Notes: generated by a model from the letters alone, not told the origin. 64,000 nt of DNA from Gammaproteobacteria bacterium (GCA_013150915.1 JAADJE010000112.1:318-64317); one strand, 5' to 3'. Positions 9,880-32,626 are shown, counted from the first letter of the stretch. Made by a program: numbers and translations.

Positions 9880-9970
9880 TGTAAATGTCTGTCGACAGGA
9901 AGATGGCCACAAGGACGCATAAGACGCTAAAGAGAAAACCTGTGATACCATTTCGGTTACACTTGCTTAT

Positions 9971-12112: not shown

Positions 12113-12187
12113 GGAATCTCTGACGTGTCTGGACGAAGTAGATTTGATCCAAACTCTACAGGTTTGTGACCACAGGAAATACTGTGA

Positions 12188-13074
<887 letters not shown>

Positions 13075-15690: not shown

Positions 15691-16054
15691 TGGATTGACC
15701 GTAATAGAGCCACCCCAAATGCGCTATCACCCACAAGGTCTGCAACAATTAATCCAGGGGACCTCCGATTCATTCAAAAAACCCATCATTGCACCCTCCG
15801 GGCATCTCCTGCAGGAGGATGACTACACCCTCCTCAACACCACGAGCGTCAAGGCCTGGCAATCTCATGTAATATAATCAAGTACTTAGCGTTTTATTCA
15901 CCACTATGTTCCCCACAATGGTGAATGAATCAGAGGTTCCCAGGACAAACGATTGGGCCAACGCTGATGAGAAGAACTCCCTTATGACTGATTGCTTATG
16001 CAGGTAAGGCGCATTACAGTAGCAGGCTTCTGGCAGGATATAATGATATGTAAT

Positions 16055-19000
16055 ATGCCTGAGTTACTGAAACCTTTCACGCAGTTGCGGGTACATCCAT
16101 CCGGTGGATTCTTTACTGGCAGGATGAGTTTGCAGCTGAGTATCAGCAGTTTGCTGACTGTCCTGTTAGTTGTACTTGGCGGTGCGATCACCGGGTATAC
16201 CTACGAAGGTCAGAAAAAAGAAACGCTGCAATCAACCGGCGTTATTTTCAAACGTGCAGCCGAACAAACTTCACAAAGCCTGAAGGCGCTGATGGAACCG
16301 GTGGGAAATTTCATCAGCCTGTCAACACAGCTTGAAAAGATCAGCGGCGGTCGTCAACAGCGTCTCGATCTTCTACCCTATTTTGTCCAGGCATTACGTA
16401 ATACACGCTGGCTGGCTAATGTCTCTGTGGGCTATTCGAATGGTGACTTTATTGTTATCTGGGCCTTACGCGGCAATGAACTGTTGAGCAGACAGACTGC
16501 TGCACCAAAGAAAGCGGCTTATCTGGTCAAACTGATCGAACGAAACCCGGGTAAATTAGCTTTAGAACGTTATCTCTACTACGACGAAAAACTTACACTG
16601 ATCAGTGAAAATGATCGCTTTTTATCGGGCTATGATCCACGCACGCGGCCATGGTACAAGCAGGCCATAAATAGTGACTACCAAATACGTACGGCACCTT
16701 ATCGTTTTGCTTCAACAGGCCAAATGGGAATTACTAGCGCACGCCGATTGGCAAATGGCCTCGGTGTGGTTGCTGCCGATATTGCCCTGGATAGTCTGGC
16801 CAGTGTATTACAGGACCATAAACTAACGGATTCCACACAGGCTGTAATATTCGACGAAAAAGGTACAGTGCTTGTCTATATCGATAATGAGGTCATGTTA
16901 GAGCGGCAGTCACAATTTCTTAAAGGGAGCATCAACGTCCTTGATCTTGAGAGGGATGAGTTATCCGAACTCTATAATGAATCGCTACGCAAGCAATTGG
17001 GTAAGGGGAACATCATCAATACTGAACAGGGGGAATGGTTCAGTATTGTCTCGGATTTATCGGCACACCCAAAACGGCGTACCTACTTGGCCATTGCTAC
17101 TCCTGTCAGAGAACTCACCACAAATGCCCGTGCCATGGCACGCGAAAATTTGATATTAGCAGGTTTCGTTATCCTGATTGCGATCTTCCTGGGGCTGTAT
17201 GTTACGCGCCGCATCGCTGGTTCTCTGCACACACTCGATCAGCAGGCTGAACGTATACGTGATTTTGATTTTGATACTGCGGTACATGTCAATTCCCGTA
17301 TCAGGGAAGTAAGCAGTCTTGCCAGCACGATGACGGTAATGAAAACAGTCATACAGCGCTTTATAGAAATTGCCCGCTCACTATCTGCCGAGCAAAAAAT
17401 AGAACGTGTACTGGAACTCATCCTACAGGATGCCATGACCGTCACCAATGCGGACGGTGGCAGCATTGCACTGCTCAGTGATGACAATACACAACTTGAA
17501 TATGCCCTGGTGCGTAATGATGAAATCGCAATACACATCGGAGGAACAAGTCAGTCACCCATTGATATCGACCCCATCCTAATCAACGATGAGAATAATA
17601 TTCATGCTGAGTTATATGTGTTACAGACGAAGAACCCTGTTTCTGTTGACAACATTAACGAGAATAGAGTGCTTGATTTCAGCAGTGTAAGGAAACGTCA
17701 TCAGTCCGGTGATTACCTGTGTAAATCCTATCTCGCACTGCCATTACTCAATAGACAGAAAGAAGTTATCGGCGTATTACAGCTTGTTAATTCCCGAGAC
17801 CGCCATAGCAAGGAAATCACCGGTTTTGACCATGCCTACCGGGCCTATGTTCATGCGCTGGCATCAAATGCCGCACTGGCACTGGATAACAATCGACTAA
17901 TACGGGCGCAAAAAGATTTATTTGATTCCTTCGTGCAGTTGATTGCCGGGGCAATCGATACCAAGTCACCCTACACGGGGGGGCATTGCCAGCGCGTGCC
18001 GGTACTGGCCGAACTGCTTGCCAACGAAGCATCGCGATCCAGGCTCGAAGCTTTCAGGGACTTTAGCCTGTCGGAAGACGAAACCTACGAACTTTATGTT
18101 GCCTCCTGGCTGCACGACTGCGGCAAGGTTACGACACCGGAGTACATCGTCGACAAGGCGACAAAGCTGGAGACTATATACAACCGTATCCACGAAATCC
18201 GTATGCGCTTTGAGGTGCTGTGGCGCGATGCAGAAATCGCTTATCGTGATGGGCTTGCAGAACATCCTGGTGATAAAAAAAAGCTGCGTAAGGGGCTGAA
18301 AGACCATCAGCTGCAATTACAGGAAGACTTTGTCTTCGTCGCCAGTTGCAACGTGGGCAGTGAGTGTATGAATCCCGATCATATGCAACGTATCAGAGAG
18401 ATAGCCAGTCAAACCTGGGTGCGCCATTTTGATGATCGTATCGGGCTATCTGAGGATGAAGTTCAGCTGCGTAAGGACGTGCCACCGGTAAATGCCCCGG
18501 CTGATGAGCAATTGCTGGCGGACAGGCCGGAGCATCTTATTCCGCGTACCGATGGGGGCAGGCCCTTTGGTGATAACCCCTATGCTTTCAAAATGGATGT
18601 CCCTGACTATGTTTACAATCTGGGTGAGGTCACAAACCTGTGCATCGCAGCAGGAACGCTTACCGATGAAGACCGTTTTAAGATCAATGACCATATCGTG
18701 CAGACCATTATCATGCTCAATAAACTGCCGTTCCCGAAGGCACTTAAACATGTACCGGAGTGGGCTGGCAACCATCACGAAAAACTGGACGGTACCGGCT
18801 ATCCAAGAAAACTGAAAGCTGAGGATCTTTCAATTCCCGAGCGCGTCATGGGCATTGCAGATATTTTTGAAGCGCTAACAGCTTCAGACCGCCCCTATAA
18901 AAAGGCCAATACATTAAACGAATCAATACAGGTTCTGAGCCTCATGCGTAACGATGGCCATATCTGTCCGGATTTATTCGATCTGTTCCTGACATCTGGC

Positions 19001-19090
19001 ATCTATCTGAAATATGCAGAAGAACACCTGTCACGGGATCAAATCGATGATGTGGATATCAGTAGTTATGTGCGCAACGAACAGAAATGA
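16055..19090 (+). CDS. Membrane c-di-GMP phosphodiesterase: periplasmic Cache-like sensor, TM, HAMP-like, GAF, HD-GYP
   Basis: Two TM segments flank a roughly 320 aa periplasmic domain. There is a GAF-like region. The HD-GYP signature is HDCGK...HHEKLDGTGYPRKL. The ORF track starts at 15992; the true start is probably M22 (16055) or M45 (16124). Confidence 0.8.
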   Translation: MPELLKPFTQLRVHPSGGFFTGRMSLQLSISSLLTVLLVVLGGAITGYTYEGQKKETLQSTGVIFKRAAEQTSQSLKALMEPVGNFISLSTQLEKISGGRQQRLDLLPYFVQALRNTRWLANVSVGYSNGDFIVIWALRGNELLSRQTAAPKKAAYLVKLIERNPGKLALERYLYYDEKLTLISENDRFLSGYDPRTRPWYKQAINSDYQIRTAPYRFASTGQMGITSARRLANGLGVVAADIALDSLASVLQDHKLTDSTQAVIFDEKGTVLVYIDNEVMLERQSQFLKGSINVLDLERDELSELYNESLRKQLGKGNIINTEQGEWFSIVSDLSAHPKRRTYLAIATPVRELTTNARAMARENLILAGFVILIAIFLGLYVTRRIAGSLHTLDQQAERIRDFDFDTAVHVNSRIREVSSLASTMTVMKTVIQRFIEIARSLSAEQKIERVLELILQDAMTVTNADGGSIALLSDDNTQLEYALVRNDEIAIHIGGTSQSPIDIDPILINDENNIHAELYVLQTKNPVSVDNINENRVLDFSSVRKRHQSGDYLCKSYLALPLLNRQKEVIGVLQLVNSRDRHSKEITGFDHAYRAYVHALASNAALALDNNRLIRAQKDLFDSFVQLIAGAIDTKSPYTGGHCQRVPVLAELLANEASRSRLEAFRDFSLSEDETYELYVASWLHDCGKVTTPEYIVDKATKLETIYNRIHEIRMRFEVLWRDAEIAYRDGLAEHPGDKKKLRKGLKDHQLQLQEDFVFVASCNVGSECMNPDHMQRIREIASQTWVRHFDDRIGLSEDEVQLRKDVPPVNAPADEQLLADRPEHLIPRTDGGRPFGDNPYAFKMDVPDYVYNLGEVTNLCIAAGTLTDEDRFKINDHIVQTIIMLNKLPFPKALKHVPEWAGNHHEKLDGTGYPRKLKAEDLSIPERVMGIADIFEALTASDRPYKKANTLNESIQVLSLMRNDGHICPDLFDLFLTSGIYLKYAEEHLSRDQIDDVDISSYVRNEQK

Positions 19091-19170
19091 GGTTGAATGA
19101 AAAGACCCATGCTCTGGATTTACGCTATGTTTTGTCCGGAATACTGTATTTGTTGGGGCAATAAATCATT

Positions 19171-20274
19171 ATGAAAATTACAAACCGACTTGCCGTAGCC
19201 ACTATTCTGTTTGTCAGTGTTGCCCTGGCAAGTACGACATTAACCTGGTTGGCGGCTGAACGAGTTCGAAGTGATACATTTGCCAGCAAGAAAAGACTTC
19301 TGTTATCCGAACTTGAGTCGCGCCGCCTTCGTGTGGTGAATTACCTGGAGCAGGTCACGAATGATTTACGCATTATGGCTGGTTCACGTTTTGTCCAGCA
19401 TGCCTTGATCGATTTCGCAAAGGCCTTCAATAATACCGGGGGAAATGCAGAAAAAACACTGCAGCGTTTATACATAGAGGAAAATCCAAATCCTGTTGGC
19501 AGAAAACACCTGCTTATCATGGCCCGGGATGGCTCCTCATACAGTGCACTGCACCAGGAATATCACGACTGGACCAGCAGCATTGCCAAGGTACGTGACT
19601 ACTACGATATCTTCCTCGTCGATCCCCAGGGGAACATAGTCTATACCGTTTTCAAGGAAGACGACTTCGCTACAAATCTTTTCAATGGTAAGTACAAAGA
19701 CACCGAACTGGCACAGGTCTTTTCTGATGTAGCAGCCAGGCCTCAAACAGGTGAAATTTATGCTCGCGACTTTGTCCGCTACGCGCCAAGCCAAAATAAA
19801 CCTGCCTCTTTTTTCGGTACTGCGGTCAACTATGAAGGTGAATTTGTTGGTGCCATCGTCGTACAACTAAAACCAGAACCTTTCAACCGTATCATGCATT
19901 TTTCACGCAGCATGGGAGAGAGTGGCAAGACCTATATTGTTGGTAAGGACAAACTACTTCGCACGCGATCACGTTTCAGTGAAGAGGATGCTGTTCTCAG
20001 AACAAAGGTCGATACAAAATCCAGTAACGCAGCCCTGGAAGGACGAAATGGTATCTGGATCATTAATGACTATCGTGGTGTACCAGTACTATCCGCCTAC
20101 GCACCCATACAGGGGGAACGCACTACATGGGCCGTACTGGCCGAAATCGATGTAGATGAAGTGACATCAGAATCAGACGATCTTATTCTGATGATGGTGC
20201 TGGTCTCCGTGATCGCATCCACACTTGCATTCCTGCTTGGTTGGTTGCTGGCTGGGCGAGATGAGGAGAGCTAA
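19171..20274 (+). CDS. Sensor-only double-Cache-like membrane protein (TM, about 300 aa periplasmic domain, TM, no output domain)
   Basis: N-terminal TM (AVATILFVSVALAS), C-terminal TM (LILMMVLVSVIASTLAFLLGWLLAG), then only RDEES. The periplasmic part resembles the sensor of the upstream HD-GYP protein. Confidence 0.6.
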   Translation: MKITNRLAVATILFVSVALASTTLTWLAAERVRSDTFASKKRLLLSELESRRLRVVNYLEQVTNDLRIMAGSRFVQHALIDFAKAFNNTGGNAEKTLQRLYIEENPNPVGRKHLLIMARDGSSYSALHQEYHDWTSSIAKVRDYYDIFLVDPQGNIVYTVFKEDDFATNLFNGKYKDTELAQVFSDVAARPQTGEIYARDFVRYAPSQNKPASFFGTAVNYEGEFVGAIVVQLKPEPFNRIMHFSRSMGESGKTYIVGKDKLLRTRSRFSEEDAVLRTKVDTKSSNAALEGRNGIWIINDYRGVPVLSAYAPIQGERTTWAVLAEIDVDEVTSESDDLILMMVLVSVIASTLAFLLGWLLAGRDEES

Positions 20275-20529
20275 CTAACTCGCAATACTCTGATCATTCG
20301 GTGCCAACATTAGAATTAACGCCTGTGCATGCTCTGCCGCTTTTCTACCGATGTCGGTTAGATAGCCGCCATCGATTTGTGTAACCAGACCTTTTTCAAA
20401 TAAACGTTTTACGGCTTCTACGTGTGCTGTGTTGGCGCTTGAATGCACCTTGATGCCTTGCTGGGTCGTAGCCAGGTTGTAGCGAATAAGAATATCAATT
20501 TCAGCGATTTGCTCTTTCGAGTAGTGCAT
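20275..20529 (-). CDS. Small conserved hypothetical protein (84 aa)
   Basis: Clean ORF MHYSKEQIAEIDILIRYNLATTQQGIKVHSS..., no recognisable domain from sequence alone. Confidence 0.4.
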   Translation of the reverse strand: MHYSKEQIAEIDILIRYNLATTQQGIKVHSSANTAHVEAVKRLFEKGLVTQIDGGYLTDIGRKAAEHAQALILMLAPNDQSIAS

Positions 20530-20611
20530 AGCTTTACCTTTCCGCCTTGATTAATGCAGGGTGGGAACCATAGAGGCGTCCTGTGATATTACATGATATT
20601 AGTTATTGACG

Positions 20612-20625
20612 TTACCCGGGTAACT
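20612..20625. promoter_or_regulatory. Perfect 14 bp palindrome GTTACCCGGGTAAC in the divergent promoter region
   Basis: Read directly; between the 84 aa gene (-) and the PAS-LuxR gene (+). Confidence 0.4.
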
Positions 20626-20836
20626 ATTTTTTCCGATTACTCAGTTTTCGTGCCCAGGCAGTTGTTTGGCTGCGCATGAGGCTATAAAGTTGTTCCTTGA
20701 GGCGGTTGTCTCCCCGAGTCTGAGGGGTAGGGTTTTTGCTGTCTTTTTTTAATTGTCGCCTACCGTGCCTCCGTTTCTGATATTCCTTGACCTGTGTCCC
20801 CCACATATGTTTTATAGTAGCTCGAAGCATGCTCTA

Positions 20837-21532
20837 ATGAGAGAACTTGGGTCGCACGGATGGAGGGGGTTGATTTTGTCTAACCTGGCAGATTTACTTT
20901 TTCGCGCAGTAGATGGTGTTTTCGCCGTCGACGGAAAGCAGAAGATCATCTTTTGGAATTCTGCTTGTGCCCAGTTATTAGGCATACCCTCCAATGAGGC
21001 GCTGGGTCGCTCGTGCAGTTCGGTTGTGCGGGGAAAGGATCCCGCAGGGCAGCCTTTCTGCGGTGGGGGATGTTGCATGACCCAGTTGATCCGGGGTGAA
21101 AATGCTCCTGGGACGTTTCCACTTCGGGTACGTGACGGCAACGGAAAGGAGTTGAGACTCTGGGTAAGTGTCGTTCTGGTGCCTTCCCGGAGGAAGAACC
21201 GGTGGACATGCGTGCATCTGCTGCATAGAGGGGAGGCCGTGGATACCCTTAACGTGTTGGAGTACAGCATCTCGCAAGGACGACCAACCACCGAGCGTAA
21301 TGCCGGTAATAATGGTCACTCATCTCCATCTGCGATCTCATCACTGACCCCACGGGAACATGAGATTCTTCAGTTGCTGTCGGAGGGTCTTGCCGTTTTG
21401 GTAATTTCCGATTTGTTGAACATCAGTCCCGTGACGGTGCGGAACCACCTTCAGCATATTCAGGCAAAGTTCGGTGTGCATAGCCAGGTTGGGACAGTGG
21501 CCTATGCTTATCGGCACAATCTCATTGCGTAG
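20837..21532 (+). CDS. PAS-domain / LuxR(GerE)-type HTH transcriptional regulator
   Basis: PAS core (DGVFAVDGKQKIIFWNSACAQLLG) with a CGGGCC cysteine cluster. C-terminal LuxR HTH (LTPREHEILQLLSEGLAVLVISDLLNISPVTVRNHLQHIQAKFGV). The ORF-track start 20753 is possible; I prefer the ATG at 20837. Confidence 0.75.
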   Translation: MRELGSHGWRGLILSNLADLLFRAVDGVFAVDGKQKIIFWNSACAQLLGIPSNEALGRSCSSVVRGKDPAGQPFCGGGCCMTQLIRGENAPGTFPLRVRDGNGKELRLWVSVVLVPSRRKNRWTCVHLLHRGEAVDTLNVLEYSISQGRPTTERNAGNNGHSSPSAISSLTPREHEILQLLSEGLAVLVISDLLNISPVTVRNHLQHIQAKFGVHSQVGTVAYAYRHNLIA

Positions 21533-21566
21533 CAGGCATAACCACCCGGAAGAGGGAGGAATAATA

Positions 21567-21842
21567 ATGGTAAAAAAGATCGCAGTGCTTGTCAGGGACA
21601 GACAGGGTGAAGCGCTCAGGATGGCACTGGGACTCACCCTGGTGGATGACATCATCGATGTATATGTGCTTGATAGAAAATTAGCGGGGACAGAACAAAA
21701 TCAGCTCAATCTTGAGTTAATGAAGGAACTGGAGATAAAAACATACTCTAATTATAAAAAAGGGAATGAAAGTATGGAATACCTTTCTACCGGGGAAATC
21801 GCTCACAAACTGCTTGAATACGACCACGTTTTACCCTATTGA
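21567..21842 (+). CDS. Small DsrE/DsrF-like family protein (91 aa, no Cys)
   Basis: The N-terminus follows the DsrE/DsrF pattern: MVKKIAVLVRDRQGEALRMALGLTLVDDIIDVYVLD. There is a strong SD (GAGGGAGGA) 7 nt upstream of the ATG at 21567. The ORF track extends to 21474. Confidence 0.45.
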   Translation: MVKKIAVLVRDRQGEALRMALGLTLVDDIIDVYVLDRKLAGTEQNQLNLELMKELEIKTYSNYKKGNESMEYLSTGEIAHKLLEYDHVLPY

Positions 21843-21846
21843 TATT

Positions 21847-22010
21847 TAGGGAACCTCTGATCAATTCATGAACGCGTATCTTACGCCTAAAATATCCAGT
21901 TTTTTCGTTGCAAATCTTCGCAATAGCTAGCTATTACGTGCGATTTACGCCTCAAACCTGAATATTTTAGATCATAATCTACTTCGTCCAGACACATCAG
22001 AGGTTCCTTA
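21847..22010. repeat. 164 bp element bounded by 15 bp inverted repeats (TAGGGAACCTCTGAT / ATCAGAGGTTCCTTA) with internal direct repeats and palindromes
   Basis: The inverted repeats match 14/15. Inside are two roughly 17 bp direct repeats ending TTACGCCT and the palindrome AATAGCTAGCTATT. The whole element is intergenic. Confidence 0.6.
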
Positions 22011-22046
22011 GGAAATAACGTAAATTAGGTGGACACCTTTGTACAA

Positions 22047-22068
22047 AAATGATGTAAATGCATCATTT
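22047..22068. promoter_or_regulatory. 22 bp palindromic operator-like motif AAATGATGTA-AA-TGCATCATTT (copy 1)
   Basis: About 95 bp upstream of the DsrE-like gene at 22162. A near-identical copy lies at 30943-30964. Confidence 0.5.
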
Positions 22069-22161
22069 CCTTCGTTAGCCACGAATCATAGTATTTTCAC
22101 ATACAGCGCTACAGTTGTTGGTTTGCGAGCTAGAAAATAGTTACCGAAGAATGAAACGACG

Positions 22162-22464
22162 ATGAAACTTGGCATCCTGGTAAATACGGATAAACATCTT
22201 GAGCACATACTGGGACTCACGAAAGCATCCGTAGCCAGAAATCATGAGACAAGTATCTTTGTTATGGACGAGGGAACAAGATTATTGGGAAACGATTTAT
22301 TTGTCGCACTGGCAGGGCTGCCAGCTGTGTCGATAACTCTTTGCGAGCATAGTGCAAAAGGTTACGGAATTAATACAAATAATTTATCAAAGGGAATCAA
22401 CTGTGCAAGCCAGTTTAATAACGCAATAATGAACCATAATGCTGACAGGGTGATTGTTTTATAG
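22162..22464 (+). CDS. DsrE/DsrF (TusD/TusC)-like sulfur-relay family protein, 100 aa
   Basis: MKLGILVNTDKHLEHILGLTKAS...IFVMDEG...ITLCEHSAKGYGI...DRVIVL has the same architecture as the TusC/TusD fold, including the conserved Cys position. Confidence 0.55.
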   Translation: MKLGILVNTDKHLEHILGLTKASVARNHETSIFVMDEGTRLLGNDLFVALAGLPAVSITLCEHSAKGYGINTNNLSKGINCASQFNNAIMNHNADRVIVL

Positions 22465-22512
22465 AAACGAAAAAATCGTGATACGTAGGTACGTATGTGT
22501 GCATGCATGACA

Positions 22513-22683
22513 ATGAGTATACTTCACATCTTGAATGACGGTTCGACCAAATTGTCCGATCAAATTATCGACGCGCATTCCAGAGAATGCCACACTGAGG
22601 TGGTTGATCTGAACAAAAAGGAAATCTCGTATGAGGATCTTGTTGACAAAATATTTTATTTTGAACGGGTCATCTCATGGTAA
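22513..22683 (+). CDS. Truncated/miniature DsrH (TusB)-like protein, 56 aa
   Basis: MSILHILNDG start and ...ISYEDLVDKIFYFERVISW end mirror the DsrH/TusB termini (MSILHIV..., DY..FV.L....W), but the central roughly 40 aa are missing. Confidence 0.4.
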   Translation: MSILHILNDGSTKLSDQIIDAHSRECHTEVVDLNKKEISYEDLVDKIFYFERVISW

Positions 22684-22717
22684 AGAAGGAGTAAACGGGC
22701 GGACAATAGACAGATTT

Positions 22718-22744
22718 GACAGACGTGGTCGTCCCTGTTTTTTC
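22718..22744 (+). terminator. Rho-independent terminator after the dsrEFH-like trio
   Basis: ACAGACGTGGTCGTCCCTGT hairpin followed by TTTTTT. Confidence 0.6.
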
Positions 22745-22819
22745 GCGATAAACTGCGCAAGTAAGCAAGAAAGTGTCGAGTCAGAGAGATGAGCCACCAG
22801 GAATGGGAGCAGGTTGTAA

Positions 22820-24646
22820 GTGATCCGAACCGATCTGAGTCATCGTAGCACTTCGTTTCCTTGTTCGAGGAGTGATATTTCGTTGTCTGATCCCGATAGT
22901 GTTTTTGACTTTAACCAGAGCAGGGCAAAGAAAAATTATGACGGTCTCCTGACCGTTCTGATTTCCCTGCTTACCCTTACGATATTTCTTGCACTGTTTG
23001 TCTTTCGTTCGCTGGATGATAACCGTCTCACCAGCTGGCAATGGGTATATACCGGCATGGACGCGTTTAGTATTCTGCCTGTGCTTGCCATCGGTATTTT
23101 TCTTGCATATCTACTCTCCAATGTTTCCCTCCCGGTGCGCAAACCAGCGATATGGCTTTTTATTTTTTCGTTTGCTGTTTCCGTTATCTTTTGGGGAGAA
23201 CCAGAGGTTATCGTGGATGCGTCGAGGTATTTAGTGCAAGCCAAGTATCTCGAACTATACGGTATTGGATATTTCTTTAAAGAGTGGGGCAATGCTATTG
23301 CGGTGTGGACGGATCTGCCGCTAGTCCCGCTGCTTTATGGTCTTATTTTTAAATTTTTCGGTGAATACAGAATAGGCACACAGATATTAAATAGTGTGCT
23401 GTTTTCCGGGACGGTTGTACTGACCTACCAGATTGGTAAGGTACTGTGGGATAAAACTGTTGGCATAAATGGAGGAATACTGCTTCTCGGTATGCCTTAC
23501 CTGTTTACCCAGGTGCCGCTCATGCTGGTTGATGTGCCAGCGATGTTCTTTTTTACCCTCGCCCTCCTTACAACGATCAAGGCCCTCAGACAAGGCGGTT
23601 CAGTGTTGCTGATATTGGCATCAGTAACAATCGTGTTTGCGATGTTATCCAAGTATTCAGTTTGGTTAATGTTAAGTGTTATCCCTGTCATTTTCCTGGC
23701 TCATATGCCATACGGAAGGAAAGTGATTCTTCAACGGGCAGCTGTGATATCCCTGGGTGCGGCACTCCTTATTGGCTTGGTCTTACTCTGGAAATTTAGT
23801 GTGTTTGTAGACCAACTGAAGTTTCTACAAAGTTATCAGGTGCCAGGACTCAGGCGCTGGGGTGAGAGCTTTACATCTACATTCTTCTTTCAGATACACC
23901 CTTATATTACGCTGGCAGCACTGTTTTCAATTTATGCAGGCATTAAAAAGAAAGATTCTAAATATGCAATCATTAGTTGGTTATTACTGCTGATTGTTGT
24001 TCTGGAGATTAAGCGGGCGCGGTATCTTATCGTGGTGTTACCGATGCTGGCACTGATGGCATCTTACGGGATGAGAGAAATTAGAAATATAAAAATACGC
24101 AAGTTTATTGTTTCGTCTGCCGTTGTATCAGCACTTGTGATAGCGATCTTCGGATATTTGCCTTTTTTGCAAAAAACAAGTGCTGTTAATCTTACCCAGG
24201 CCGGGAAATATCTCGATACCATGGATGCTGAAACAATCGAAGTGATAACGCTTCCACCGTTTCGCTCAATTGTTAATCCAGCTGTTTCGGTTCCTGTTCT
24301 CGATTTATTTACCCAAAAGACGCTTTTGTATCGGTATGATAAATATTCACTTACAAGACCTCCATCGATCGAGAAATCTTCCTTGAGATTCACGTGGGAA
24401 TATAAGAATCCCGAATACTTTATTGCCGATGTTGATAGATCTACAGATACTTCAAAAAAGCACATTCCGGTAGCCATTATTTTTGGTGGCCGTAACCAGA
24501 TTCTTCCAGCTCGAATAGCAAAGAGGATAGAGGGCTATCGTATGACTAAAGAATTGATGGTTTTTGACCGGGTGTTTAAATACCAAACGATGATTCGGGT
24601 GTACCAGCCATTACAGACCCTGACCAGTAACGACCCGTTAGCTTAA
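22820..24646 (+). CDS. GT-C fold glycosyltransferase, ArnT/PMT_2-like (polyprenyl-phosphate-sugar dependent), multi-TM with C-terminal periplasmic domain
   Basis: More than 10 TM helices. The loop/TM pattern DLPLVPLLYGLIFKFFGEYRIGTQILNSVLFSGTVVLTYQIG...GGILLLGMPYLFTQVP is characteristic of ArnT/PMT_2 (GT83/GT39-like). GTG start, uncertain. Confidence 0.65.
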   Translation: MIRTDLSHRSTSFPCSRSDISLSDPDSVFDFNQSRAKKNYDGLLTVLISLLTLTIFLALFVFRSLDDNRLTSWQWVYTGMDAFSILPVLAIGIFLAYLLSNVSLPVRKPAIWLFIFSFAVSVIFWGEPEVIVDASRYLVQAKYLELYGIGYFFKEWGNAIAVWTDLPLVPLLYGLIFKFFGEYRIGTQILNSVLFSGTVVLTYQIGKVLWDKTVGINGGILLLGMPYLFTQVPLMLVDVPAMFFFTLALLTTIKALRQGGSVLLILASVTIVFAMLSKYSVWLMLSVIPVIFLAHMPYGRKVILQRAAVISLGAALLIGLVLLWKFSVFVDQLKFLQSYQVPGLRRWGESFTSTFFFQIHPYITLAALFSIYAGIKKKDSKYAIISWLLLLIVVLEIKRARYLIVVLPMLALMASYGMREIRNIKIRKFIVSSAVVSALVIAIFGYLPFLQKTSAVNLTQAGKYLDTMDAETIEVITLPPFRSIVNPAVSVPVLDLFTQKTLLYRYDKYSLTRPPSIEKSSLRFTWEYKNPEYFIADVDRSTDTSKKHIPVAIIFGGRNQILPARIAKRIEGYRMTKELMVFDRVFKYQTMIRVYQPLQTLTSNDPLA

Positions 24647-24666
24647 ACGCTACAGGAGTTGATGAT

Positions 24667-26100
24667 ATGGAAATGCTTGCTAGTGAAAGAAAGAATCGGG
24701 TATGGGCCTTTATCATATTAGGCTTTTTTGCTCTGGTCAGTGTTGCGACCTTCGCCTATAACGAATATTACATTTACCTTTCTATCTACCTCTGGTTTGG
24801 TCTGATTTATGGGTTGGCCTTACAGTATGGCAGGTTCTGTTTTTCCTCGGCATTCCGTGATCTGTTTGCGGTCGGTGTTGCAAGAATGGCGGTTGGAATC
24901 ACGATTGCTATCGCACTCTTCGCCTTGGTCGCCTCCCTGGTGACCGCACAGGGCTTAAGCACGTTTCATCCTGCGCCCTCGGGTATTCACGCCGTCATCG
25001 CCGGATTTATTTTCGGAATGGGAATGGTGTTTGCGGGTGGTTGCGCATCAGGGTCTTTGTATAAAACCGGGGAAGGCAATATGAATGCCTTGATTGTGGT
25101 TTTTTCTATCAGCGTGTCCCAGGCTTTATTTGTCGACATCGGCGGATGGACCAATAAGCTTGTTCCGGAATCGTGGCATCACTCGGCACTTGCAAAAGGA
25201 CTTCCTGCGTCAATAAACGTGGGCGACGGCTGGATGGATCAGTATCTGGCTGGCTATGTCTGGAACCATCCAGTGACAACTTTTGCGAAAATGCTGGGTT
25301 GGGAAAATTCCTCGGCATTGGGGGCGATTGTGGGTAATTTTCTCATTGGTGTAATATTACCTTCGGCATTACTTCTAGGTGTGGTCTATTTTGTCTGGTC
25401 ACGTAAGGCCTTTGTCAGGAAAATGCTCAAGCAGGGCAAGGAAAAAATGACGCTGCTTGATGAAGTGAAAGGCTATTGGGCGATGCTGTCGGCCTCCAAA
25501 CGAACAGCGATCGCAGGCCTGATTATCGGGGTTGCAGCAGGCTTGCACATGCTGGTGCTGCAAGGGGCACGGGTCAAGTTTGGCGTCAAGAATGCAGGCG
25601 CACTGCTGGAGAGAATGGGCTTCGATTATGGTATATCTGTGAACGGTACTGTCTTCGATCCCGGTTACTGGTATGTGACAACACAGGAGGCACAATGGGT
25701 TGGCTGGATGTTACAGAAAACAACCGGTGCTAACTATATGGATAATGTATTTTTCGGTTACGTCAATGGAATACCTAATCCCGCTATTAATCCAGCGGAC
25801 TGGATGTCACTCGCAACCATTGGTGGTGCCGCCATCATGGCATTGTTGTACAGTGAATTTAAATTTAAAAAACCCACTCTCGAGCTTGCCACCTGGGCGA
25901 TCATAGGGGGTACCCTGATGGGTATAGGTGCACGCCTGGCGCTCGGCTGTAACATTGGTGCATTTTTTATACGGGTGGCGAATGGTGATCCCTCAGGGTG
26001 GTTATTTGGTATAGGTATGGTTCCCGGCGCATATGTTGCGGTTAGGTTCTTCAATTGGTGGACCGAGAGAAAAATGGAAAAACAGGGTTTTGGTTTGTAA
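24667..26100 (+). CDS. YeeE/YedE-family thiosulfate/sulfur-compound transporter (two-repeat type)
   Basis: GRFCFSS and GGCASGS motifs, then a second repeat with GCNIGAF; about 10 TM; 477 aa. Immediately followed by a TusA-like gene (the yeeE-yeeD arrangement). Confidence 0.85.
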   Translation: MEMLASERKNRVWAFIILGFFALVSVATFAYNEYYIYLSIYLWFGLIYGLALQYGRFCFSSAFRDLFAVGVARMAVGITIAIALFALVASLVTAQGLSTFHPAPSGIHAVIAGFIFGMGMVFAGGCASGSLYKTGEGNMNALIVVFSISVSQALFVDIGGWTNKLVPESWHHSALAKGLPASINVGDGWMDQYLAGYVWNHPVTTFAKMLGWENSSALGAIVGNFLIGVILPSALLLGVVYFVWSRKAFVRKMLKQGKEKMTLLDEVKGYWAMLSASKRTAIAGLIIGVAAGLHMLVLQGARVKFGVKNAGALLERMGFDYGISVNGTVFDPGYWYVTTQEAQWVGWMLQKTTGANYMDNVFFGYVNGIPNPAINPADWMSLATIGGAAIMALLYSEFKFKKPTLELATWAIIGGTLMGIGARLALGCNIGAFFIRVANGDPSGWLFGIGMVPGAYVAVRFFNWWTERKMEKQGFGL

Positions 26101-26136
26101 TCTTCAGGACAATAACAGGTAGCAAAGGAGGTCATT

Positions 26137-26388
26137 ATGACGATGAAATTTGAACAGACAAATGAAGGAAATTACCTGTTAGATGTGACGGGGTATGTTT
26201 GCCCACACCCACAGATTTACACCAAGAAAGCATTGGAAAGAATCGAACCGGGTGATGTTTTACGGGTGATATTCGACAACCCATCTTCTGGGGAATCGAT
26301 TTCCACCATGTGTGAAAATACGGGTGATGAAATCCTCGAGAAGAAAAAAGAGGGGGGTGCTTTCATATGGAATATACAAAAAATTTAA
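26137..26388 (+). CDS. TusA-like sulfurtransferase (YeeD/TsuB-like)
   Basis: LDVTGYVCPHPQIYTKKAL carries the CPxP motif of TusA. 83 aa. Confidence 0.85.
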   Translation: MTMKFEQTNEGNYLLDVTGYVCPHPQIYTKKALERIEPGDVLRVIFDNPSSGESISTMCENTGDEILEKKKEGGAFIWNIQKI

Positions 26389-26446
26389 TTTTGTACAGCG
26401 CATCGTGCAGTGATGCGAAACGGGTGTTCAGAAAGAGTCTGTAGCC

Positions 26447-26638
26447 ATGAAAAGTGATCTTTGGGTGGTGATTATCGTTACGGTGACATTTATTGGATTT
26501 CTGATAGGGTACAGTCTTCCTCCCCTGGTAGAGACGGGCCTGTTAACCGGGAAGGGGGGTGAACAGGCTGAAATGACACGAGAACTGGGTAAGGACATGG
26601 AGCAGTATTATCGCGACTTGCAAAAGGACGACGAATGA
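26447..26638 (+). CDS. Small single-pass membrane peptide, paralog 1 (63 aa)
   Basis: MKSDLWVVIIVTVTFIGFLIGYS TM then VETG...EQYYRDL acidic tail; a paralog follows. Confidence 0.55.
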   Translation: MKSDLWVVIIVTVTFIGFLIGYSLPPLVETGLLTGKGGEQAEMTRELGKDMEQYYRDLQKDDE

Positions 26639-26680
26639 GAATGCCTGAATCTATACGACTGTGAACAAAGGAGTAAAGCG

Positions 26681-26890
26681 TTGAAAAACAACCTTTGGAT
26701 GTTAATTACACTGGTAGCAGGACTGCTGGGTTTTCTTGCAGGTTACGGTATATCATTTTCTACGGGTGTGGAGCCTGGTTTTTTTGAGGCAGTGGAGACG
26801 GGCAGTTATGGTGGTGGAAGTACTGGAGAAGTTACCGAGGGGATTAGTGCGGAAGACCAGGAATATTACCGTAAATTATTGGAAGAGTGA
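26681..26890 (+). CDS. Small single-pass membrane peptide, paralog 2 (69 aa)
   Basis: TTG start with AAAGGAG 7 nt upstream. MKNNLWMLITLVAGLLGFLAGYG TM then a Gly/Ser/Thr/Glu-rich tail with VETG and QEYYRKL. Confidence 0.55.
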   Translation: MKNNLWMLITLVAGLLGFLAGYGISFSTGVEPGFFEAVETGSYGGGSTGEVTEGISAEDQEYYRKLLEE

Positions 26891-27189
26891 GATTGACAGG
26901 AAATATAGGCCTTACCGATTGTGAGACTAAAGAGGTCATCATTCTCGGTACTGGTCTCGCAGGTTCTGGGACCGTACATGCCTTGTCTTATTCTAGTTTT
27001 AATTCCAGTACGGGAACAGATATTCTTGTCAATGAAGCAGATAGGACGGTCGGTGGTCTGCCTAAAACAGTTAAGTACTGCGATTACAACATGGAGCCTG
27101 GTGTCGTTGCAGCCAAAGAAATGATAGCGGGTAGTTTTGTAATAATAAAAGAGCAGGGCCCATTTTCCCCGACAGGGATCAACTTATGA
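26887..27189 (+). pseudogene. N-terminal fragment of an FAD-dependent amine-oxidase/desaturase-like oxidoreductase (gene remnant)
   Basis: Has the GxGxxG dinucleotide-binding motif (KEVIILGTGLAGSGTVHAL) plus DILVNEADRTVGG (the EA-DR-GGR motif). The ORF is only 100 aa and overlaps both neighbours. Confidence 0.4.
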
Positions 27190-28673
27190 AATGTGCATTG
27201 ATCCATCCGGCATGGTTTCCTGAAGAAATATTTCCTTCCAGAACGGTTGCCTCGCAAATTAATTACTGGCAGCCACTGGGAATCCTGTATGTGGGCGCCA
27301 GTCTTCTGAAAGCGGATCATGACGTAAAGTTTTTTAACGGTGCATTCATGTCACATGAAGAGCTGATGCACCGGGTAAAAGAATTTAAACCCGATTTTAC
27401 AGGCATTTATTCTACCAGCTTCGGTTGGCCAAAGGCCATGAAGACAGCGGAGGCTATCAAAAAGCTTGATAAGAACATATTTACCTGTGTTGGTGGGCCC
27501 TATCCGATTGCCGTGCAAGAGCGGTGTTTAAACGATCAAAGCACAAGTATCGATGCCATCGTCACAGGTGAGGCGGAACTGACCATGGTCGAGCTGCTGG
27601 CGAGGCTTCAGCAAGGGAAAGACCTCGAGGGTGTTCAGGGGCTGGCTTTCAGGCAGGGTTCGAGGGTCATCAAGAACCCATTGAGACCATTGACCGAGGA
27701 TCTGGATATTCTACCTTTTCCCGCACGCGAGCTGTTGGGTGATATGAATCAATATATTCCACCACCGGCGACATACCGGAGAAAACCGGTCACTACCCTT
27801 ATAAGCTCCAGGGGATGCAACAGAAGGTGCATCTTCTGCTTCCAGATCGATAAGGAAAGGAAAAGCGGTAAGCGTGGTATCCGCTTCCGCAGCGTCGAGA
27901 ACGTCCTCCAGGAAATAGAGCTCTGTCTCAGGCAGGGTTACCGTGAGATCAAGTTTATTGACGACACCTTTGCCGCTGATTATGACCGGGCCATGCAGAT
28001 ATGCCAGCAGATAAAAGCACGGCAGCTTGATTTCACCTGGTTCGCCTCAGCCTGTGTCAACCAGGTTGATAAACCCTTGCTCCAGGCTATGAAGGAGGCC
28101 GGTTGCTGGTCCATTCTGTTTGGTGCCGACAGTGGTGTCCAGAAAACTCTCAATACACTCAGGAAAGGAACCACCCTTGAGTTCATACGCAGGGATGTGC
28201 GTGCAGCAAAAGAAGTCGGCCTGAAAGTCAGCACCCCTTTTATATTTGGCGCGCCGGGAGAAACTTTTGCAGACGGGTTGAAAACCATTGAATTTGCTAT
28301 AGAGCTGGATGCCGACCTGGCAAACTTCCACGCCCTGACGCCATTTCCGGGTACCTATCTCTACGATAATCTGGATAAATTCGGCACTGTTTCTGGCGAC
28401 CTCTCAGACCGTACCTATCAGTCGGCCGCGTTTACCCCGTATACCATGACCCGTGATGAAATCTTAAGCTTACGCCAGCTGGCATTCAGGCGTTTCTATT
28501 CCAGGCCGAAATTTTTAGTTAGAAGGCTGATGGAAATCAGGACCTTGAACGACTGCAAGGCCGCGGTCAGTGGTCTGAGGAGTCTGTTCTGGCTCTGGGC
28601 AGGCAACAATTTGTTTTATAGACGAAAAAAGGGGGCGCTGACACCCGTTGAATTAAGTGTTCCTAAAAAGTGA
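27186..28673 (+). CDS. B12-binding-domain radical SAM protein (class B rSAM)
   Basis: N-terminal B12-binding-like region (FTGIYSTSFGWPKA, TCVGGPYP) and the CNRRCIFCF CxxxCxxC radical-SAM motif; 495 aa. Confidence 0.8.
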   Translation: MKCALIHPAWFPEEIFPSRTVASQINYWQPLGILYVGASLLKADHDVKFFNGAFMSHEELMHRVKEFKPDFTGIYSTSFGWPKAMKTAEAIKKLDKNIFTCVGGPYPIAVQERCLNDQSTSIDAIVTGEAELTMVELLARLQQGKDLEGVQGLAFRQGSRVIKNPLRPLTEDLDILPFPARELLGDMNQYIPPPATYRRKPVTTLISSRGCNRRCIFCFQIDKERKSGKRGIRFRSVENVLQEIELCLRQGYREIKFIDDTFAADYDRAMQICQQIKARQLDFTWFASACVNQVDKPLLQAMKEAGCWSILFGADSGVQKTLNTLRKGTTLEFIRRDVRAAKEVGLKVSTPFIFGAPGETFADGLKTIEFAIELDADLANFHALTPFPGTYLYDNLDKFGTVSGDLSDRTYQSAAFTPYTMTRDEILSLRQLAFRRFYSRPKFLVRRLMEIRTLNDCKAAVSGLRSLFWLWAGNNLFYRRKKGALTPVELSVPKK

Positions 28674-28745
28674 CCAGCGTTCAGCAATCGCTATTCAAGG
28701 CGGCCTCTATTCATGAATTAACGGGGGTACCCTTAAGTCAGTACG

Positions 28746-29825
28746 TTATAATTGTACGTACTCTTTGGCCAGGGTCGGATACAGTCGGGGGTTGAACAGG
28801 ATGTTTGTAATAAAATAGCACTCGTGTGTGCAATAGCACTGCTTGTTATGGATAGAATCCAGCACGGGTCTGGCCTTCTCGGAACGAACGATTTTCTTCA
28901 TGTTGTAGTTATAGTCTCTAACATTGCCAAAACGGGTTGAGAGAATTTCACAGGGATAGACATCTCCGGTTTCCGTCAGTACCAGGTTTAGTCTCCCGGC
29001 GTAGCATGGAATGTGTCTTTTCTGGGCGAGCAGCGTCTGATGGATCAAACGGCGCTGTACAATATCCTGAGCGGCTTTCAGTTTGGCACCACGAAAGCGG
29101 TATAGGCTGGATGTTCTGTTTTTTAGATTTCTCTCAAGCCGGTCAATCGCACAACGGTATTTTTCGTAATCCACTTCTTTAAAATGTGAATCTGCAAGTC
29201 TGCCTCGCACCATCGAAATAGTGTGTGTTTTAATATTTGTCAGATCCTGTACAAAATCAATGATCTCATCCATTTTGTCCTGGTTTTCGGAAAGAAATAC
29301 GGTGTTGATGCCGAGTTCGAAATTTGGATATTGTTGCAGCAGTTCACCAAGCAGGCGATAAGTCTGCATGGTTTTATCAAAGCAACCCGGCGTATCGCGT
29401 AGCACATCGTGATCGCCATGCAAGCCATCAAGAGAAAGCTTGACGGTGACGACAGACTTTTTACAGTATTTTAGAATTTGTTCTGTCTTGTCTTTAATCA
29501 TATCTGGCATCAGACCATTGGTGGGAAAGAGCATCATGACAGGCTTGTTATAATCGTAGAAAAGCTTGCTTATTTCTACAAGATCCTTTCTCAGGTAGGG
29601 TTCACCACCGGAGAAGGCCAGCCACAACAGTTTACCCAGTGATAAAGAGATTTTTTTAATTTCATCAAGTGAAAGCTCTGCTTCGCTGCCCTCCTTGTTG
29701 TGGGTGTTGTCAACATAAAAGCAGAAGGGGCATCGAGCATTACACTTACGGGTGACAAAAAAAGTGAGTTGAACAGGCTGCCCCTTCGAGAGTATAGAAG
29801 CTGTGTGACGCAGTGGAGAATACAT
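28746..29825 (-). CDS. Radical SAM enzyme with C-terminal SPASM/twitch-like Cys cluster
   Basis: CNARCPFCF CxxxCxxC near the N-terminus and a C-terminal CYCTHEC cluster. The start reassigned to the ATG at 29825 (MYSPLRH) overlaps the GT2 stop as TGATG; the ORF-track start is 29951. Confidence 0.75.
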   Translation of the reverse strand: MYSPLRHTASILSKGQPVQLTFFVTRKCNARCPFCFYVDNTHNKEGSEAELSLDEIKKISLSLGKLLWLAFSGGEPYLRKDLVEISKLFYDYNKPVMMLFPTNGLMPDMIKDKTEQILKYCKKSVVTVKLSLDGLHGDHDVLRDTPGCFDKTMQTYRLLGELLQQYPNFELGINTVFLSENQDKMDEIIDFVQDLTNIKTHTISMVRGRLADSHFKEVDYEKYRCAIDRLERNLKNRTSSLYRFRGAKLKAAQDIVQRRLIHQTLLAQKRHIPCYAGRLNLVLTETGDVYPCEILSTRFGNVRDYNYNMKKIVRSEKARPVLDSIHNKQCYCTHECYFITNILFNPRLYPTLAKEYVQL

Positions 29826-30829
29826 CAGGCCTTCTCCAGCAGCGTGCGCCCAACTGTAAAGTATCTGGCCAGACCGGCAAGTGCGCCAATGCCTACTGCC
29901 GTAGGGTAGAGAAACAGGTAATAAGACGTTGCGGCAAGTGCAAACAGCCATCCTTTCGTGCGGTAAAATGCCATCAGTAACCCCCTGTTCAGATACAGAT
30001 CAATGGCAAGAATCAAGGGGATTAGTGATATAAATGCCCTGTTCTCAGTCAAAAGAAAAACAAGAAAAAGAATCACGATAGAAAACCAGGTAGCTACATT
30101 GATTTTCAGACCTATGGATGCGGTACCAGAGTCGGCAAGTACATCGTTGTTTTTTATGGAATACATAGTCCAGTACATTGATTTTCTGATGGCATTGCGT
30201 AAAGAACGATACAGGGAGAAATTAAATATGTGCTGTACCTGGATAGCCGTTTCCATGACAAGCCTGTATCCGTCCTGGCGCAATCGATGACTAAAATCTA
30301 CATCTTCGATTATCGGCAGGAAGGTCTCGGTAAATCCGCCGCTTCTGTGAAAACTCCGGGCGTTGATAACCATGGCATGAGTGGCGATATAGTCGGGATG
30401 TTCTACATCTCGGGTCTCTGAATAATTGATAAAGATAGACTGAAACAGACTGAAGAAGCTGTTATCGAATGGAATGCGTGTATAGGTGCCGCCGACAACG
30501 GTAGTGGGGCCTGCCAGGGAGGCAGTTTGGCTGGCAATGGAAAGGGTATTTTTCTGCAGGATGCAGTCGGAATCGGTAAAAAAGAGTATATCTCCACTGC
30601 AGTTGGCGGCCCCAATATTTCTTGCCTGTGCTGCACCGCAGCGTGACTTCAGCCGGATGAGCTTGCAGGGGAAACTTTTTATCACCTCGATCGAATTATC
30701 CCTGGAGCAGTCATCGACGACTATTACCTCGAAGTCGCGGAATGTAGATGCAAAGATCGCTTCCAGGCACCTTCCTATTGTGGCACCTCCCTGATAGTTG
30801 GGAATAATAATCGAGACAAATTTATCCAT
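29825..30829 (-). CDS. GT2-family glycosyltransferase with C-terminal TM helices (polyprenyl-phosphate sugar synthase-like, ArnC/GtrB/DPM1-like)
   Basis: IIIPNYQGGATIGRCL...VVDDCSRD...TDSDC (the DxD motif) and about 3 C-terminal TM helices; 334 aa. Confidence 0.75.
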   Translation of the reverse strand: MDKFVSIIIPNYQGGATIGRCLEAIFASTFRDFEVIVVDDCSRDNSIEVIKSFPCKLIRLKSRCGAAQARNIGAANCSGDILFFTDSDCILQKNTLSIASQTASLAGPTTVVGGTYTRIPFDNSFFSLFQSIFINYSETRDVEHPDYIATHAMVINARSFHRSGGFTETFLPIIEDVDFSHRLRQDGYRLVMETAIQVQHIFNFSLYRSLRNAIRKSMYWTMYSIKNNDVLADSGTASIGLKINVATWFSIVILFLVFLLTENRAFISLIPLILAIDLYLNRGLLMAFYRTKGWLFALAATSYYLFLYPTAVGIGALAGLARYFTVGRTLLEKA

Positions 30830-30942
30830 CGTTTATTGATAAAAAAACAAAAAATCATAATAGCAGAGTCCGTCCCGGTAGTCTCCGGGGCTGTATGACA
30901 AGGCAGGCTTTTTCAGTTACTTCAACTACCGGGTATCCTGGA

Positions 30943-30964
30943 AAATGATGCAGATGCATCATTT
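30943..30964. promoter_or_regulatory. 22 bp palindromic operator-like motif AAATGATGCA-GA-TGCATCATTT (copy 2)
   Basis: Perfect 10 bp arms in the divergent region between the GT2 gene (-) and the rhodanese gene (+). It matches the motif at 22047-22068. Confidence 0.5.
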
Positions 30965-31166
30965 CATTTTTTGCATACAGGTATTCTAATTAGCATAGGA
31001 TCGTCAAAAAAAATTTGACTGTCCCGGCGAGTGCATTGTGGAACGTATGGTTGGTTCGCTCATGTGTTGATGGACTTGGCAACATTTTAGTGGCAATGCT
31101 CCATGTGCTGCGTCACAGATTGCGGCGGTGCTGAAATAAGGTTTAGGCGTTGTTTTGATTGGATGA

Positions 31167-32207: not shown

Positions 32208-32227
32208 GCAAATAAAGACAAGAACTT

Positions 32228-32266
32228 AACCAGATGGGATTTATAAATCCTATCTGGTTTGTTTTG
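32228..32266 (+). terminator. Strong hairpin terminator between the convergent rhodanese and DUF1858 genes
   Basis: AACCAGATGGGATT-tata-AATCCTATCTGGTT (14 bp stem, one G-U) followed by TGTTTTG. Confidence 0.7.
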
Positions 32267-32286
32267 GATAAGTAATCAGAGTCTCC

Positions 32287-32481: not shown

Positions 32482-32626
32482 AAAGATTGATATTGGCTTA
32501 TAGATAGTAGTATCTTAAGCCTATCTGGTTTAGTAAGGTAGCGGGTAACGCATACGCCGATCGTATCATTAGATATTACGGCAATGCGAATAATTAAAGG
32601 CGATTGGGAGAAACAGGATCGCCGGT

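Follow-up and report, generated by a model that had tools for sequence, protein, structure and literature searches.

A conserved 22-bp palindrome as the predicted operator of a PAS-LuxR regulator at a proteobacterial sulfur-trafficking locus

Two copies of one 22-bp palindrome occur in the 64-kb stretch of DNA analyzed here (the window), each in an intergenic region of a locus in which genes for sulfur import and sulfur transfer are joined to genes for glycosyltransferases and radical-SAM enzymes. Which protein reads this palindrome, and what does it do to the transcription of the adjoining genes? The question bears on a wider one, as sulfur sensing and the control of cytoplasmic sulfur trafficking in sulfur-oxidizing bacteria are poorly understood; the published examples of sulfur-sensing regulators in these organisms are ArsR-type repressors (PMC11582611). 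The comparisons described below make it likely that the two dyads are operators of a dimer of the adjacently encoded PAS-LuxR protein, which is predicted to activate two promoters in the class II manner. The predicted regulator-operator pair would be a new one of a familiar kind, in which a LuxR-type dimer occupies an inverted repeat that covers the -35 region. The pair is unusually well conserved and, as far as is visible, limited to two promoters of one locus.

The palindromes and their surroundings

The features of the window that bear on this question, other than the promoter elements, are the following.

15992-20274, Cache-HAMP-GAF-HD-GYP and dCache proteins
20876-21532, + strand, PAS-LuxR (GerE HTH) one-component regulator, the proposed binder (Pfam GerE 2.7e-15, PAS 4.1e-9; alternative starts at 20837 and 20753)
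21567-21842, + strand, dsrE-like a, 91 aa, 35 nt beyond the end of the regulator gene, its Shine-Dalgarno sequence being a good one; absent from the gene map of the original prediction
22047-22068, no strand assigned, predicted operator site 1, AAATGATGTAAATGCATCATTT = AAATGATGTA-AA-TGCATCATTT, between dsrE-like a and b, a position kept in more than 30 non-redundant loci
22162-22464, + strand, dsrE-like b, whose homologs carry PF02635
22162-28673, + strand, proposed target operon 1, made up of co-directional, tightly spaced genes (Pfam, NCBIfam) in conserved synteny
28746-30829, - strand, SPASM radical SAM and GT2 (Pfam), divergent from site 2, a possible third target that is weak in the window
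30943-30964, no strand assigned, predicted operator site 2, AAATGATGCAGATGCATCATTT = AAATGATGCA-GA-TGCATCATTT, in the GT2/rhodanese intergenic region, a position kept in 17 loci
31191-32207, + strand, tandem-rhodanese sulfurtransferase (Pfam Rhodanese 2.2e-30), proposed target gene 2, which lies 3' of site 2 and of its -10-like element in all lineages

The pattern AAATGATG-N6-CATCATTT has exactly two matches in the 64 kb, at 22047-22068 and 30943-30964, versus 0.05 expected; dinucleotide-preserving shuffles yielded a mean of 0.05 matches, and none of the 100 shuffled sequences reached two or more. A search of the window that tolerated two mismatches returned the same two copies and no others. 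The pair of palindromes described in the original prediction is thus confirmed. With a weight matrix derived from 26 orthologous sites, the two copies score 42.7 and 39.6 bits, and everything else in the window scores below 8 bits. From the end of copy 1 to the ATG at 22162 there are 93 nt, in line with the distance of about 95 bp upstream of this DsrE-like gene given initially. The arms of copy 2 are perfect over 10 bp, as had been observed, and copy 1 has a single T-for-C change at position 9, where orthologs have either C or T. The flanks of the two copies are unrelated except for the -10 element.

The dyad has a 10-2-10 architecture with two free central bases. Measured from center to center, 11 bp separate its two invariant cores, TGATG and CATCA, a distance that places both of them on one face of the helix. 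The dyad has the size and shape of the operators of GerE-type regulators, which are inverted repeats of ~16 to 22 bp whose half-sites are spaced by roughly one turn of the helix.

The dsrE-like gene a is probably co-transcribed with the regulator gene. Because it lies between that gene and copy 1, copy 1 is located between two dsrE-like genes. Proposed target operon 1 comprises, in this order, dsrE-like b, a 62-aa ORF, a PMT_2 glycosyltransferase, a YeeE/YedE transporter, TusA, two small membrane ORFs, a 100-aa remnant of an FAD oxidase, and a B12-radical-SAM protein, the latter being HpnJ-like with a score below the cut-off. In its gene content (Sulf_transp, TusA, PF02635 DsrE-family homologs, and the 91-aa and 62-aa ORFs), this set resembles the YTD cluster, for which a recent study prefers the reading of a type II DsrEFH accompanied by YeeE and TusA (PMC13293266). 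In the window, the set is joined to PMT_2, GT2, B12-radical-SAM, SPASM radical-SAM, and rhodanese genes. None of the NCBIfam models matched the YTD/DsrEFH context genes. The contigs that match the window belong to an uncultured gammaproteobacterial MAG from marine-sediment and other environmental metagenomes.

Two peculiarities of this particular copy of the locus deserve description. The 100-aa ORF at 26887-27189 appears to be what is left of the N-terminal part of an FAD amine-oxidase/protoporphyrinogen-oxidase-like protein (weak NCBIfam matches). At the same position, relatives encode a full-length protein of ~470 to 520 aa that combines NAD_binding_8 and Amino_oxidase domains (e.g., at 17445-18854 in locus L204), so the window appears to carry a deletion; loci L008 and L010 have a 1.5-kb gap there. 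The second peculiarity is a family of MITE/REP-like intergenic elements, found at 12110-12253, 15755-15943, 21847-22010, and 32275-32289, with terminal inverted repeats of ~15 to 25 bp (TAGGGAACCTCTGAT...ATCAGAGGTTCCTTA) and divergent interiors; matches to their termini number 7 in the window versus 1.67 expected. The element at 21847-22010 is a 164-nt nested inverted repeat whose computed fold is one long hairpin (-45.3 kcal/mol, z = -4.96). It represents an insertion between dsrE-a and copy 1 of the motif and is missing in the 86%-identical relative L006. An Rfam search (E-value mode) of positions 20000-33000 detected no RNA family.

Conservation of the motif and its link to the PAS-LuxR gene

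For the comparison, 25 DsrE-b homologs were aligned and 80 related metagenomic loci retrieved. Dozens of relatives of this locus carry the same 22-mer, and they carry it where the window does, in the gap between dsrE-like a and b and in the gap between the GT2 and rhodanese genes. The ortholog consensus is AAATGATGYA-NN-TRCATCATTT. The loci that carry it belong to Gamma-, Beta-, and Alphaproteobacteria, with a GC content of up to 67% and with neighboring proteins whose identity goes down to 40 to 60%. In about 30 metagenomic loci, the 22-mer (with at most two mismatches) is found 53 to 345 nt upstream of a dsrE-b ortholog, at protein identities from 100% to 58%; L010 and L048 carry an additional copy in the GT2/rhodanese gap. 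In the loci of marine Alphaproteobacteria, which were found through homologs of the regulator, both positions retain the core ATGATGCA-NN-TRCATCAT.

Across 31 oriented site-1 regions, the mean pairwise identity is 0.92 in the motif, 0.28 to 0.36 in the 44 nt upstream of it, and 0.30 beyond +30. Within the motif, there is essentially no variation at arm positions 1 to 8 and 15 to 22. Position 9 alternates between C and T and position 14 between G and A, and the two central bases are unconstrained. Site conservation of this kind is directly observed, and, judged by it, the 22-mer is a functional, sequence-specific cis element and not a chance repeat. The opposite reading, in which the two copies are a chance match or a functionless remnant of a duplication or a mobile element, draws on the MITE-like element (21847-22010) immediately upstream of copy 1. 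That element, however, is missing in relatives that retain the motif, the shuffles predict just 0.05 matches, the two copies have unrelated flanks apart from the -10, and the motif keeps its identity of 0.92 while its flanks are randomized. The conservation data thus exclude such an origin, to which we assign a negligible probability.

A genome-wide pattern search had been proposed as a check on the motif. An exact-pattern scan (AAATGATGNANNTNCATCATTT) of GTDB species genomes returned at least 118 stretches, and at least 25 of these, among the matches listed, lie at one of the two orthologous positions. The latter, again among the matches listed, come from Acidiferrobacterales, Burkholderiales, other Betaproteobacteria, and a bin labeled Nitrospiria, with GC contents reaching 67% and regulator identities down to 40%. 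Many of the listed matches, from AT-rich Firmicutes, Bacteroidota, and archaea, look like chance or unrelated occurrences.

Does the motif go with the regulator gene? Among the loci with enough upstream DNA visible, it is present in 17 of the 18 that have the PAS-LuxR gene and in none of the 23 that lack it (Fisher p = 1.2e-10, uncorrected for phylogeny, the loci being phylogenetically non-independent). For that reason, a neighbor-joining tree of DsrE-b was built. In this tree, which is based on 100 residues and carries no support values, the loci with both the regulator and the motif form a paraphyletic group, and the two were lost together in at least two separate clades. Regulator and site are both kept in Alpha-, Beta-, and Gammaproteobacteria; their co-occurrence and their co-loss are observed facts of the locus. 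The layout of the genes differs accordingly: in loci without the regulator, the dsrE-like pair abuts (~27 nt), whereas in loci with it, a gap of 100 to 350 bp holds the motif and the promoter. Such contiguous dsrE-like pairs, with neither motif nor PAS-LuxR gene, are seen in L024, L026, L032, L046, L066, L083, and others (at ~9700-10300 in the 20-kb loci). The dsrE-like a protein was also considered as a regulator-specific partner and was rejected, since its gene is present in all 23 regulator-less loci, where it abuts dsrE-b.

Across the Gamma-, Beta-, and Alphaproteobacteria, the PAS-LuxR gene is the sole regulatory gene that is constantly adjacent, and the other flanking genes vary by lineage. 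In the recognition helix of its product, residues R189, N190, H191, and H194 are invariant in 46 homologs, paralleling the invariant arms of the motif. We infer that a dimer of this protein binds the dyad, in which each AAATGATGYA arm would be read by one GerE-type HTH. The original prediction of an operator for a dimeric HTH protein, and specifically for the adjacent PAS-LuxR regulator, is thereby strengthened, given the conservation in three classes, the skewed distribution of the motif between loci with and without the gene, and the joint losses. Its further suggestion of a dedicated regulon also holds up in a local form: the motif is kept at both positions of the locus, and the regulon appears to be local.

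The 22-mer also adjoins genes for other LuxR-type proteins in loci that are unrelated to this one, which agrees with the reading of the dyad as the operator of a dimeric HTH protein. In L098, it is next to a gene for a 306-aa PAS-LuxR protein, followed by a TetR gene; in L099, a gene for a REC-LuxR response regulator lies between two 22-mer sites; and in L193, the neighbor encodes a 351-aa GerE protein. The recognition helices of the LuxR-type proteins of L098, L099, and L193 all contain TVRNH. A wider set of LuxR-family proteins may share this operator.

That the dyad is bound by some other protein, such as a Fur/Zur metalloregulator or another LuxR-family response regulator, with the PAS-LuxR linkage being coincidental, strikes us as very improbable. 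Fur and Zur boxes are AT-rich palindromes of 19 to 23 bp. AATGAT/ATCATT may be likened to Fur-box hexamers, and the outer AAATG/CATTT to gammaproteobacterial Zur boxes; however, the likeness is superficial, and the spacing in AATGAT-N8-ATCATT is unlike that of Fur (N1; 7-1-7) or Zur. Moreover, although Fur and Zur are near-universal, 23 of 23 orthologous loci that lack the PAS-LuxR gene also lack the motif. The presence of the 22-mer next to the REC-LuxR gene of L099, and in loci with no detectable LuxR gene within 8 kb, would fit a different reader, but no further regulator gene neighbors the motif consistently across Gamma-, Beta-, and Alphaproteobacteria.

Three loci deserve separate mention. 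L033 (1780-2230) is the lone exception: it encodes a regulator of 66% identity and the dsrE-like pair, yet the motif is absent; its a-b gap is just 80 bp, and a hairpin terminator is found 3' of the regulator gene. L206 (CP070641.1, 912150-932788), from a 2.19-Mb Pseudomonadota genome in a single contig, encodes a regulator ortholog of 59% identity, and the 10 kb around it contain neither a dsrE/YeeE locus nor the motif. L207 encodes a regulator protein identical to that of L206, adjoined by dsrE-a, the motif, and dsrE-b.

Perfect-consensus 22-mers are also seen outside the sulfur locus, at L098:1192, L099:3873 and 4651, L193:1333, L128:1286, L168:1879, L143:6891, L175:2118, and L176:1094. Their carriers are unrelated genomes, often with high GC content. 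Several of these 22-mers are followed, again from +21, by a -10-like hexamer, and some lie upstream of genes for proteins with T9SS sorting domains. A separate palindrome, AAATGATGTACGTACATCATTT, is exactly repeated in about a dozen loci with otherwise unrelated flanks (L091, L093, L097, L103, L115, L133, L160, L161, L173, L180, L192, and L196). Those that have a name among the matches listed are from Paenibacillus, Fontibacillus, or Gracilibacillus. It is probably the operator of another regulator.

Promoter geometry and the sign of regulation

Both sites are followed at the same distance by a -10-like hexamer.

22089-22094, + strand, TAGTAT, inferred -10 element of the site-1 promoter, separated from the motif by 20 nt (T-A-G-T-A-T, then TTT, at +21 to +26 in 34 site-1 regions)
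30985-30990, + strand, TCTAAT, inferred -10 element of the rhodanese promoter, separated from the motif by 20 nt (T-x-T-A-A-T at +21 to +26 in 17 loci)

All site-1 instances have TAGTAT (or AATACT) at +21 to +26, followed by TTT, and the mean pairwise identity of this hexamer is 0.75, compared with ~0.3 in the adjoining sequence. All site-2 instances have T-x-T-A-A-T on the rhodanese side, the GT2 side being much weaker. The fixed geometry is an observed property of both site types. If the hexamers, which are assigned by consensus only, are true -10 elements, then the dyad extends from about -54 to -33, with its center near -43.5. At the -35 position (17-bp spacing), both promoter types have TTTCAT or TTTCCT, a poor match to TTGACA. 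A generic promoter scan of the window called neither the site-1 nor the site-2 promoter, because the -35 is absent. Such a layout, with the dyad placed over a poor -35, would be that of a class II activator, whose sites are centered at about -41.5 to -44.5 from the transcription start next to a weak or missing -35.

The two inferred promoters both point along the + strand, which places site 2 for the rhodanese gene. Copy 2 had been assigned to a divergent GT2/rhodanese promoter region. Its intergenic position is as described, but symmetric divergent use does not follow from the sequence, in which the conserved -10 is on the rhodanese side. In the window, the mirror +21 to +26 position on the GT2 side reads AAGTAA, so that bidirectional control would be possible but weak here. 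Some relatives (L119, L010, L194, L106, L137, L107, and L088) have CACAAT, CACTAT, or GAATAT at this mirror position, suggesting that in them one dyad could serve divergent promoters.

In the mechanism that we propose, the dyad near -43.5 would take the place of a recognizable -35. The regulator, once its PAS domain has been switched to the active state, would bind and recruit RNA polymerase to the two promoters. Promoter 1 would drive the operon from dsrE-b to the B12-radical-SAM gene, including the YeeE/TusA sulfur import module, and promoter 2 would drive the rhodanese gene. The same protein on the same site could alternatively be a repressor that blocks RNA polymerase at the -35 until a signal releases it, given that the inferred -35 is a common position of repressor operators too and that SoxR and sHdrR, regulators of sulfur-oxidation genes, are repressors released by sulfane sulfur (PMC11582611). 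Yet neither promoter type has a recognizable -35, so the unoccupied promoter would be weak, and the 20-nt spacing to the -10 is fixed in all lineages and at both site types, which is typical of contact between an activator and the polymerase. LuxR, TraR, and VqmA, with sites at the -35 region, are activators. The PAS-LuxR relatives that have their sites at the -35 region are activators as well (PMC9774167). Because the promoters lack a -35 and the spacing is rigid, we infer activation and consider repression unlikely.

A third possibility is that the palindrome acts in the RNA, as the hairpin of a terminator, an attenuator, or a processing site after dsrE-a. Site 1 is just 20 to 50 nt past the dsrE-a stop codon in many relatives, the two copies fold at -8 and -10 kcal/mol, and copy 2 is flagged as terminator-like by a consensus scan. 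The stem, however, is AT-rich, with 3 G-C pairs in 9 to 10; copy 1, which lacks a U-tract, escapes the terminator scan; and the fold z-scores are weak (-2.8 and -1.3). It is the sequence itself that is invariant, and changes in the inner arms (C9/A14, A10/C13) are non-compensatory. In addition, site 2 has no co-directional upstream gene, and the inferred geometry puts the site upstream of the transcription start. On the strength of the AT-rich stem, the unflagged copy 1, the z-scores, and the non-compensatory changes, an intrinsic terminator was rejected, and a function of the hairpin at the RNA level is extremely improbable.

The regulator and its possible signal

The likely reader of the operator, the PAS-LuxR protein, had been given a start at 20837. 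The likelier start is 20876, which yields a protein of 218 aa, as in most orthologs (208 to 219 aa, mostly 218 to 219). In the long version of the ORF, the PAS domain occupies residues 52 to 155 and the GerE domain residues 196 to 252, which fits the PimM type of Streptomyces PAS-LuxR proteins, of ~190 to 220 aa with an N-terminal PAS and a C-terminal LuxR HTH. The closest sequences in PDB are the DNA-binding HTH domains of LiaR, VraR, and NarL. NCBIfam has no family above cut-off for the regulator or for the small ORFs, and a literature search found no paper describing the regulator family or the operator.

An AlphaFold2 model built from the 46-sequence alignment has a moderate pLDDT of 72, with the Cys-bearing loop near 60. 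Its best fold matches are the VqmA-DNA complex (6ide, E = 1.5e-8) and EL222 (2.6e-7), at ~15% identity and a TM of ~0.37, followed by heme and flavin PAS sensors. In both VqmA and EL222, a PAS sensor is followed at the C terminus by an HTH of the LuxR type, and both proteins bind DNA as signal-controlled dimers. VqmA is the DPO receptor of Vibrio cholerae, solved in 6ide in the DNA-bound state, and EL222 is a LOV-HTH protein with light-activated DNA binding. Their operator sequences differ from the one described here. The LOV flavin-Cys motif (GXNCRFLQ) was not found in the aligned PAS domains; the likeness to EL222 is one of fold only.

In the PAS domain, four cysteines, C31, C47, C62, and C66, are invariant in the 46 homologs (WNxxC, GRxC, PFC, GGC(C)). 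C62 and C66 belong to a PFCGGGC(C) motif, and W27 and H114 are likewise invariant. The four cysteines suggest a metal, Fe-S, or thiol/sulfane-sulfur/redox sensing site, and a redox, Fe-S, or sulfane-sulfur switch might operate through them, an attractive idea in view of predicted targets that import and transfer sulfur. A bolder version of this idea, which we put forward tentatively and hold to be rather less probable than its negation, is that the PAS-LuxR proteins are a new class of cysteine-based one-component sensors of sulfur or redox status, using Fe-S or a persulfide/polysulfide switch on the four PAS cysteines. They would directly activate, through the 22-bp operator, a conserved cluster for sulfur import, sulfur transfer, and lipid glycosylation/radical-SAM chemistry in sulfur-oxidizing Alpha-, Beta-, and Gammaproteobacteria. 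If true, this would provide a positive-control counterpart to the ArsR-type sulfane-sulfur repressors.

Comparison with known systems places the predicted pair among GerE-type regulators and sets it apart from each of them. In LuxR/TraR (lux box and tra box) and NarL (7-2-7), as would be the case here, a dimer of GerE-type HTHs sits on an inverted repeat. The lux box is centered at about -42.5 over the -35 (class II, as for LuxR/TraR), and the central spacer of the NarL site is 2 bp. The half-site is different, though, and the sensor here is PAS, not an AHL-binding or receiver domain. The Streptomyces PAS-LuxR proteins (PimM, CfaR, and relatives) have the same combination of PAS and LuxR-type HTH and are likewise pathway-specific, encoded beside their targets, and they bind a palindrome of 16 bp in the -35 region of those targets (PMC9774167). 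Their GC-rich operator, CTVGGGAWWTCCCBAG (PMC9774167), is unmatched by the 22-bp AT-rich 10-2-10 dyad, and they control polyene and phytotoxin clusters in Actinobacteria, whereas the present cluster, for sulfur trafficking with glycosyltransferase and radical-SAM genes, is from Proteobacteria. The four invariant PAS cysteines would be a further difference from the Streptomyces proteins.

The heme-PAS HTH switch FG214 (bioRxiv 10.64898/2026.03.15.711900) also prefers an inverted repeat with a 2-bp spacer. It differs in its GC-rich half-site (GGGGCGGGG) and in its bis-His heme, as opposed to the Cys cluster of the present protein. The heme-ligating residues of FG214 are at positions 156-175, and its HTH is released from the PAS domain, so that its domain order appears to be reversed; with this and the GC-rich site, FG214 was rejected as a close relative. 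The ArsR-type SoxR and sHdrR are encoded beside genes for a YeeE-like transporter, TusA, DsrE, and rhodanese and sense sulfur via conserved cysteines (PMC11582611). They belong, however, to the ArsR family, act as repressors released from DNA, and have other operators.

The predicted pair offers an uncharacterized regulator family with an unusually well-defined 22-bp candidate operator, two target promoters, and a hypothesis of a four-Cys sensor. The regulon would couple the YeeE/TusA/DsrE-like/rhodanese module to glycosyltransferases and radical-SAM enzymes, and the inducing signal, if known, would help assign a function to the cluster. The operator and its promoter geometry might also serve as an orthogonal expression switch.

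In the window, the DNA upstream of the regulator gene (20876) contains no autoregulatory site, even at very low matrix scores. Weaker dyads (e.g., CAATGATGTTATTGCATCATTA) are present 100 to 190 bp upstream of the regulator gene at L007:8719, L010:3509, L061:1903, and L198:3247, which suggests lineage-specific autoregulation.
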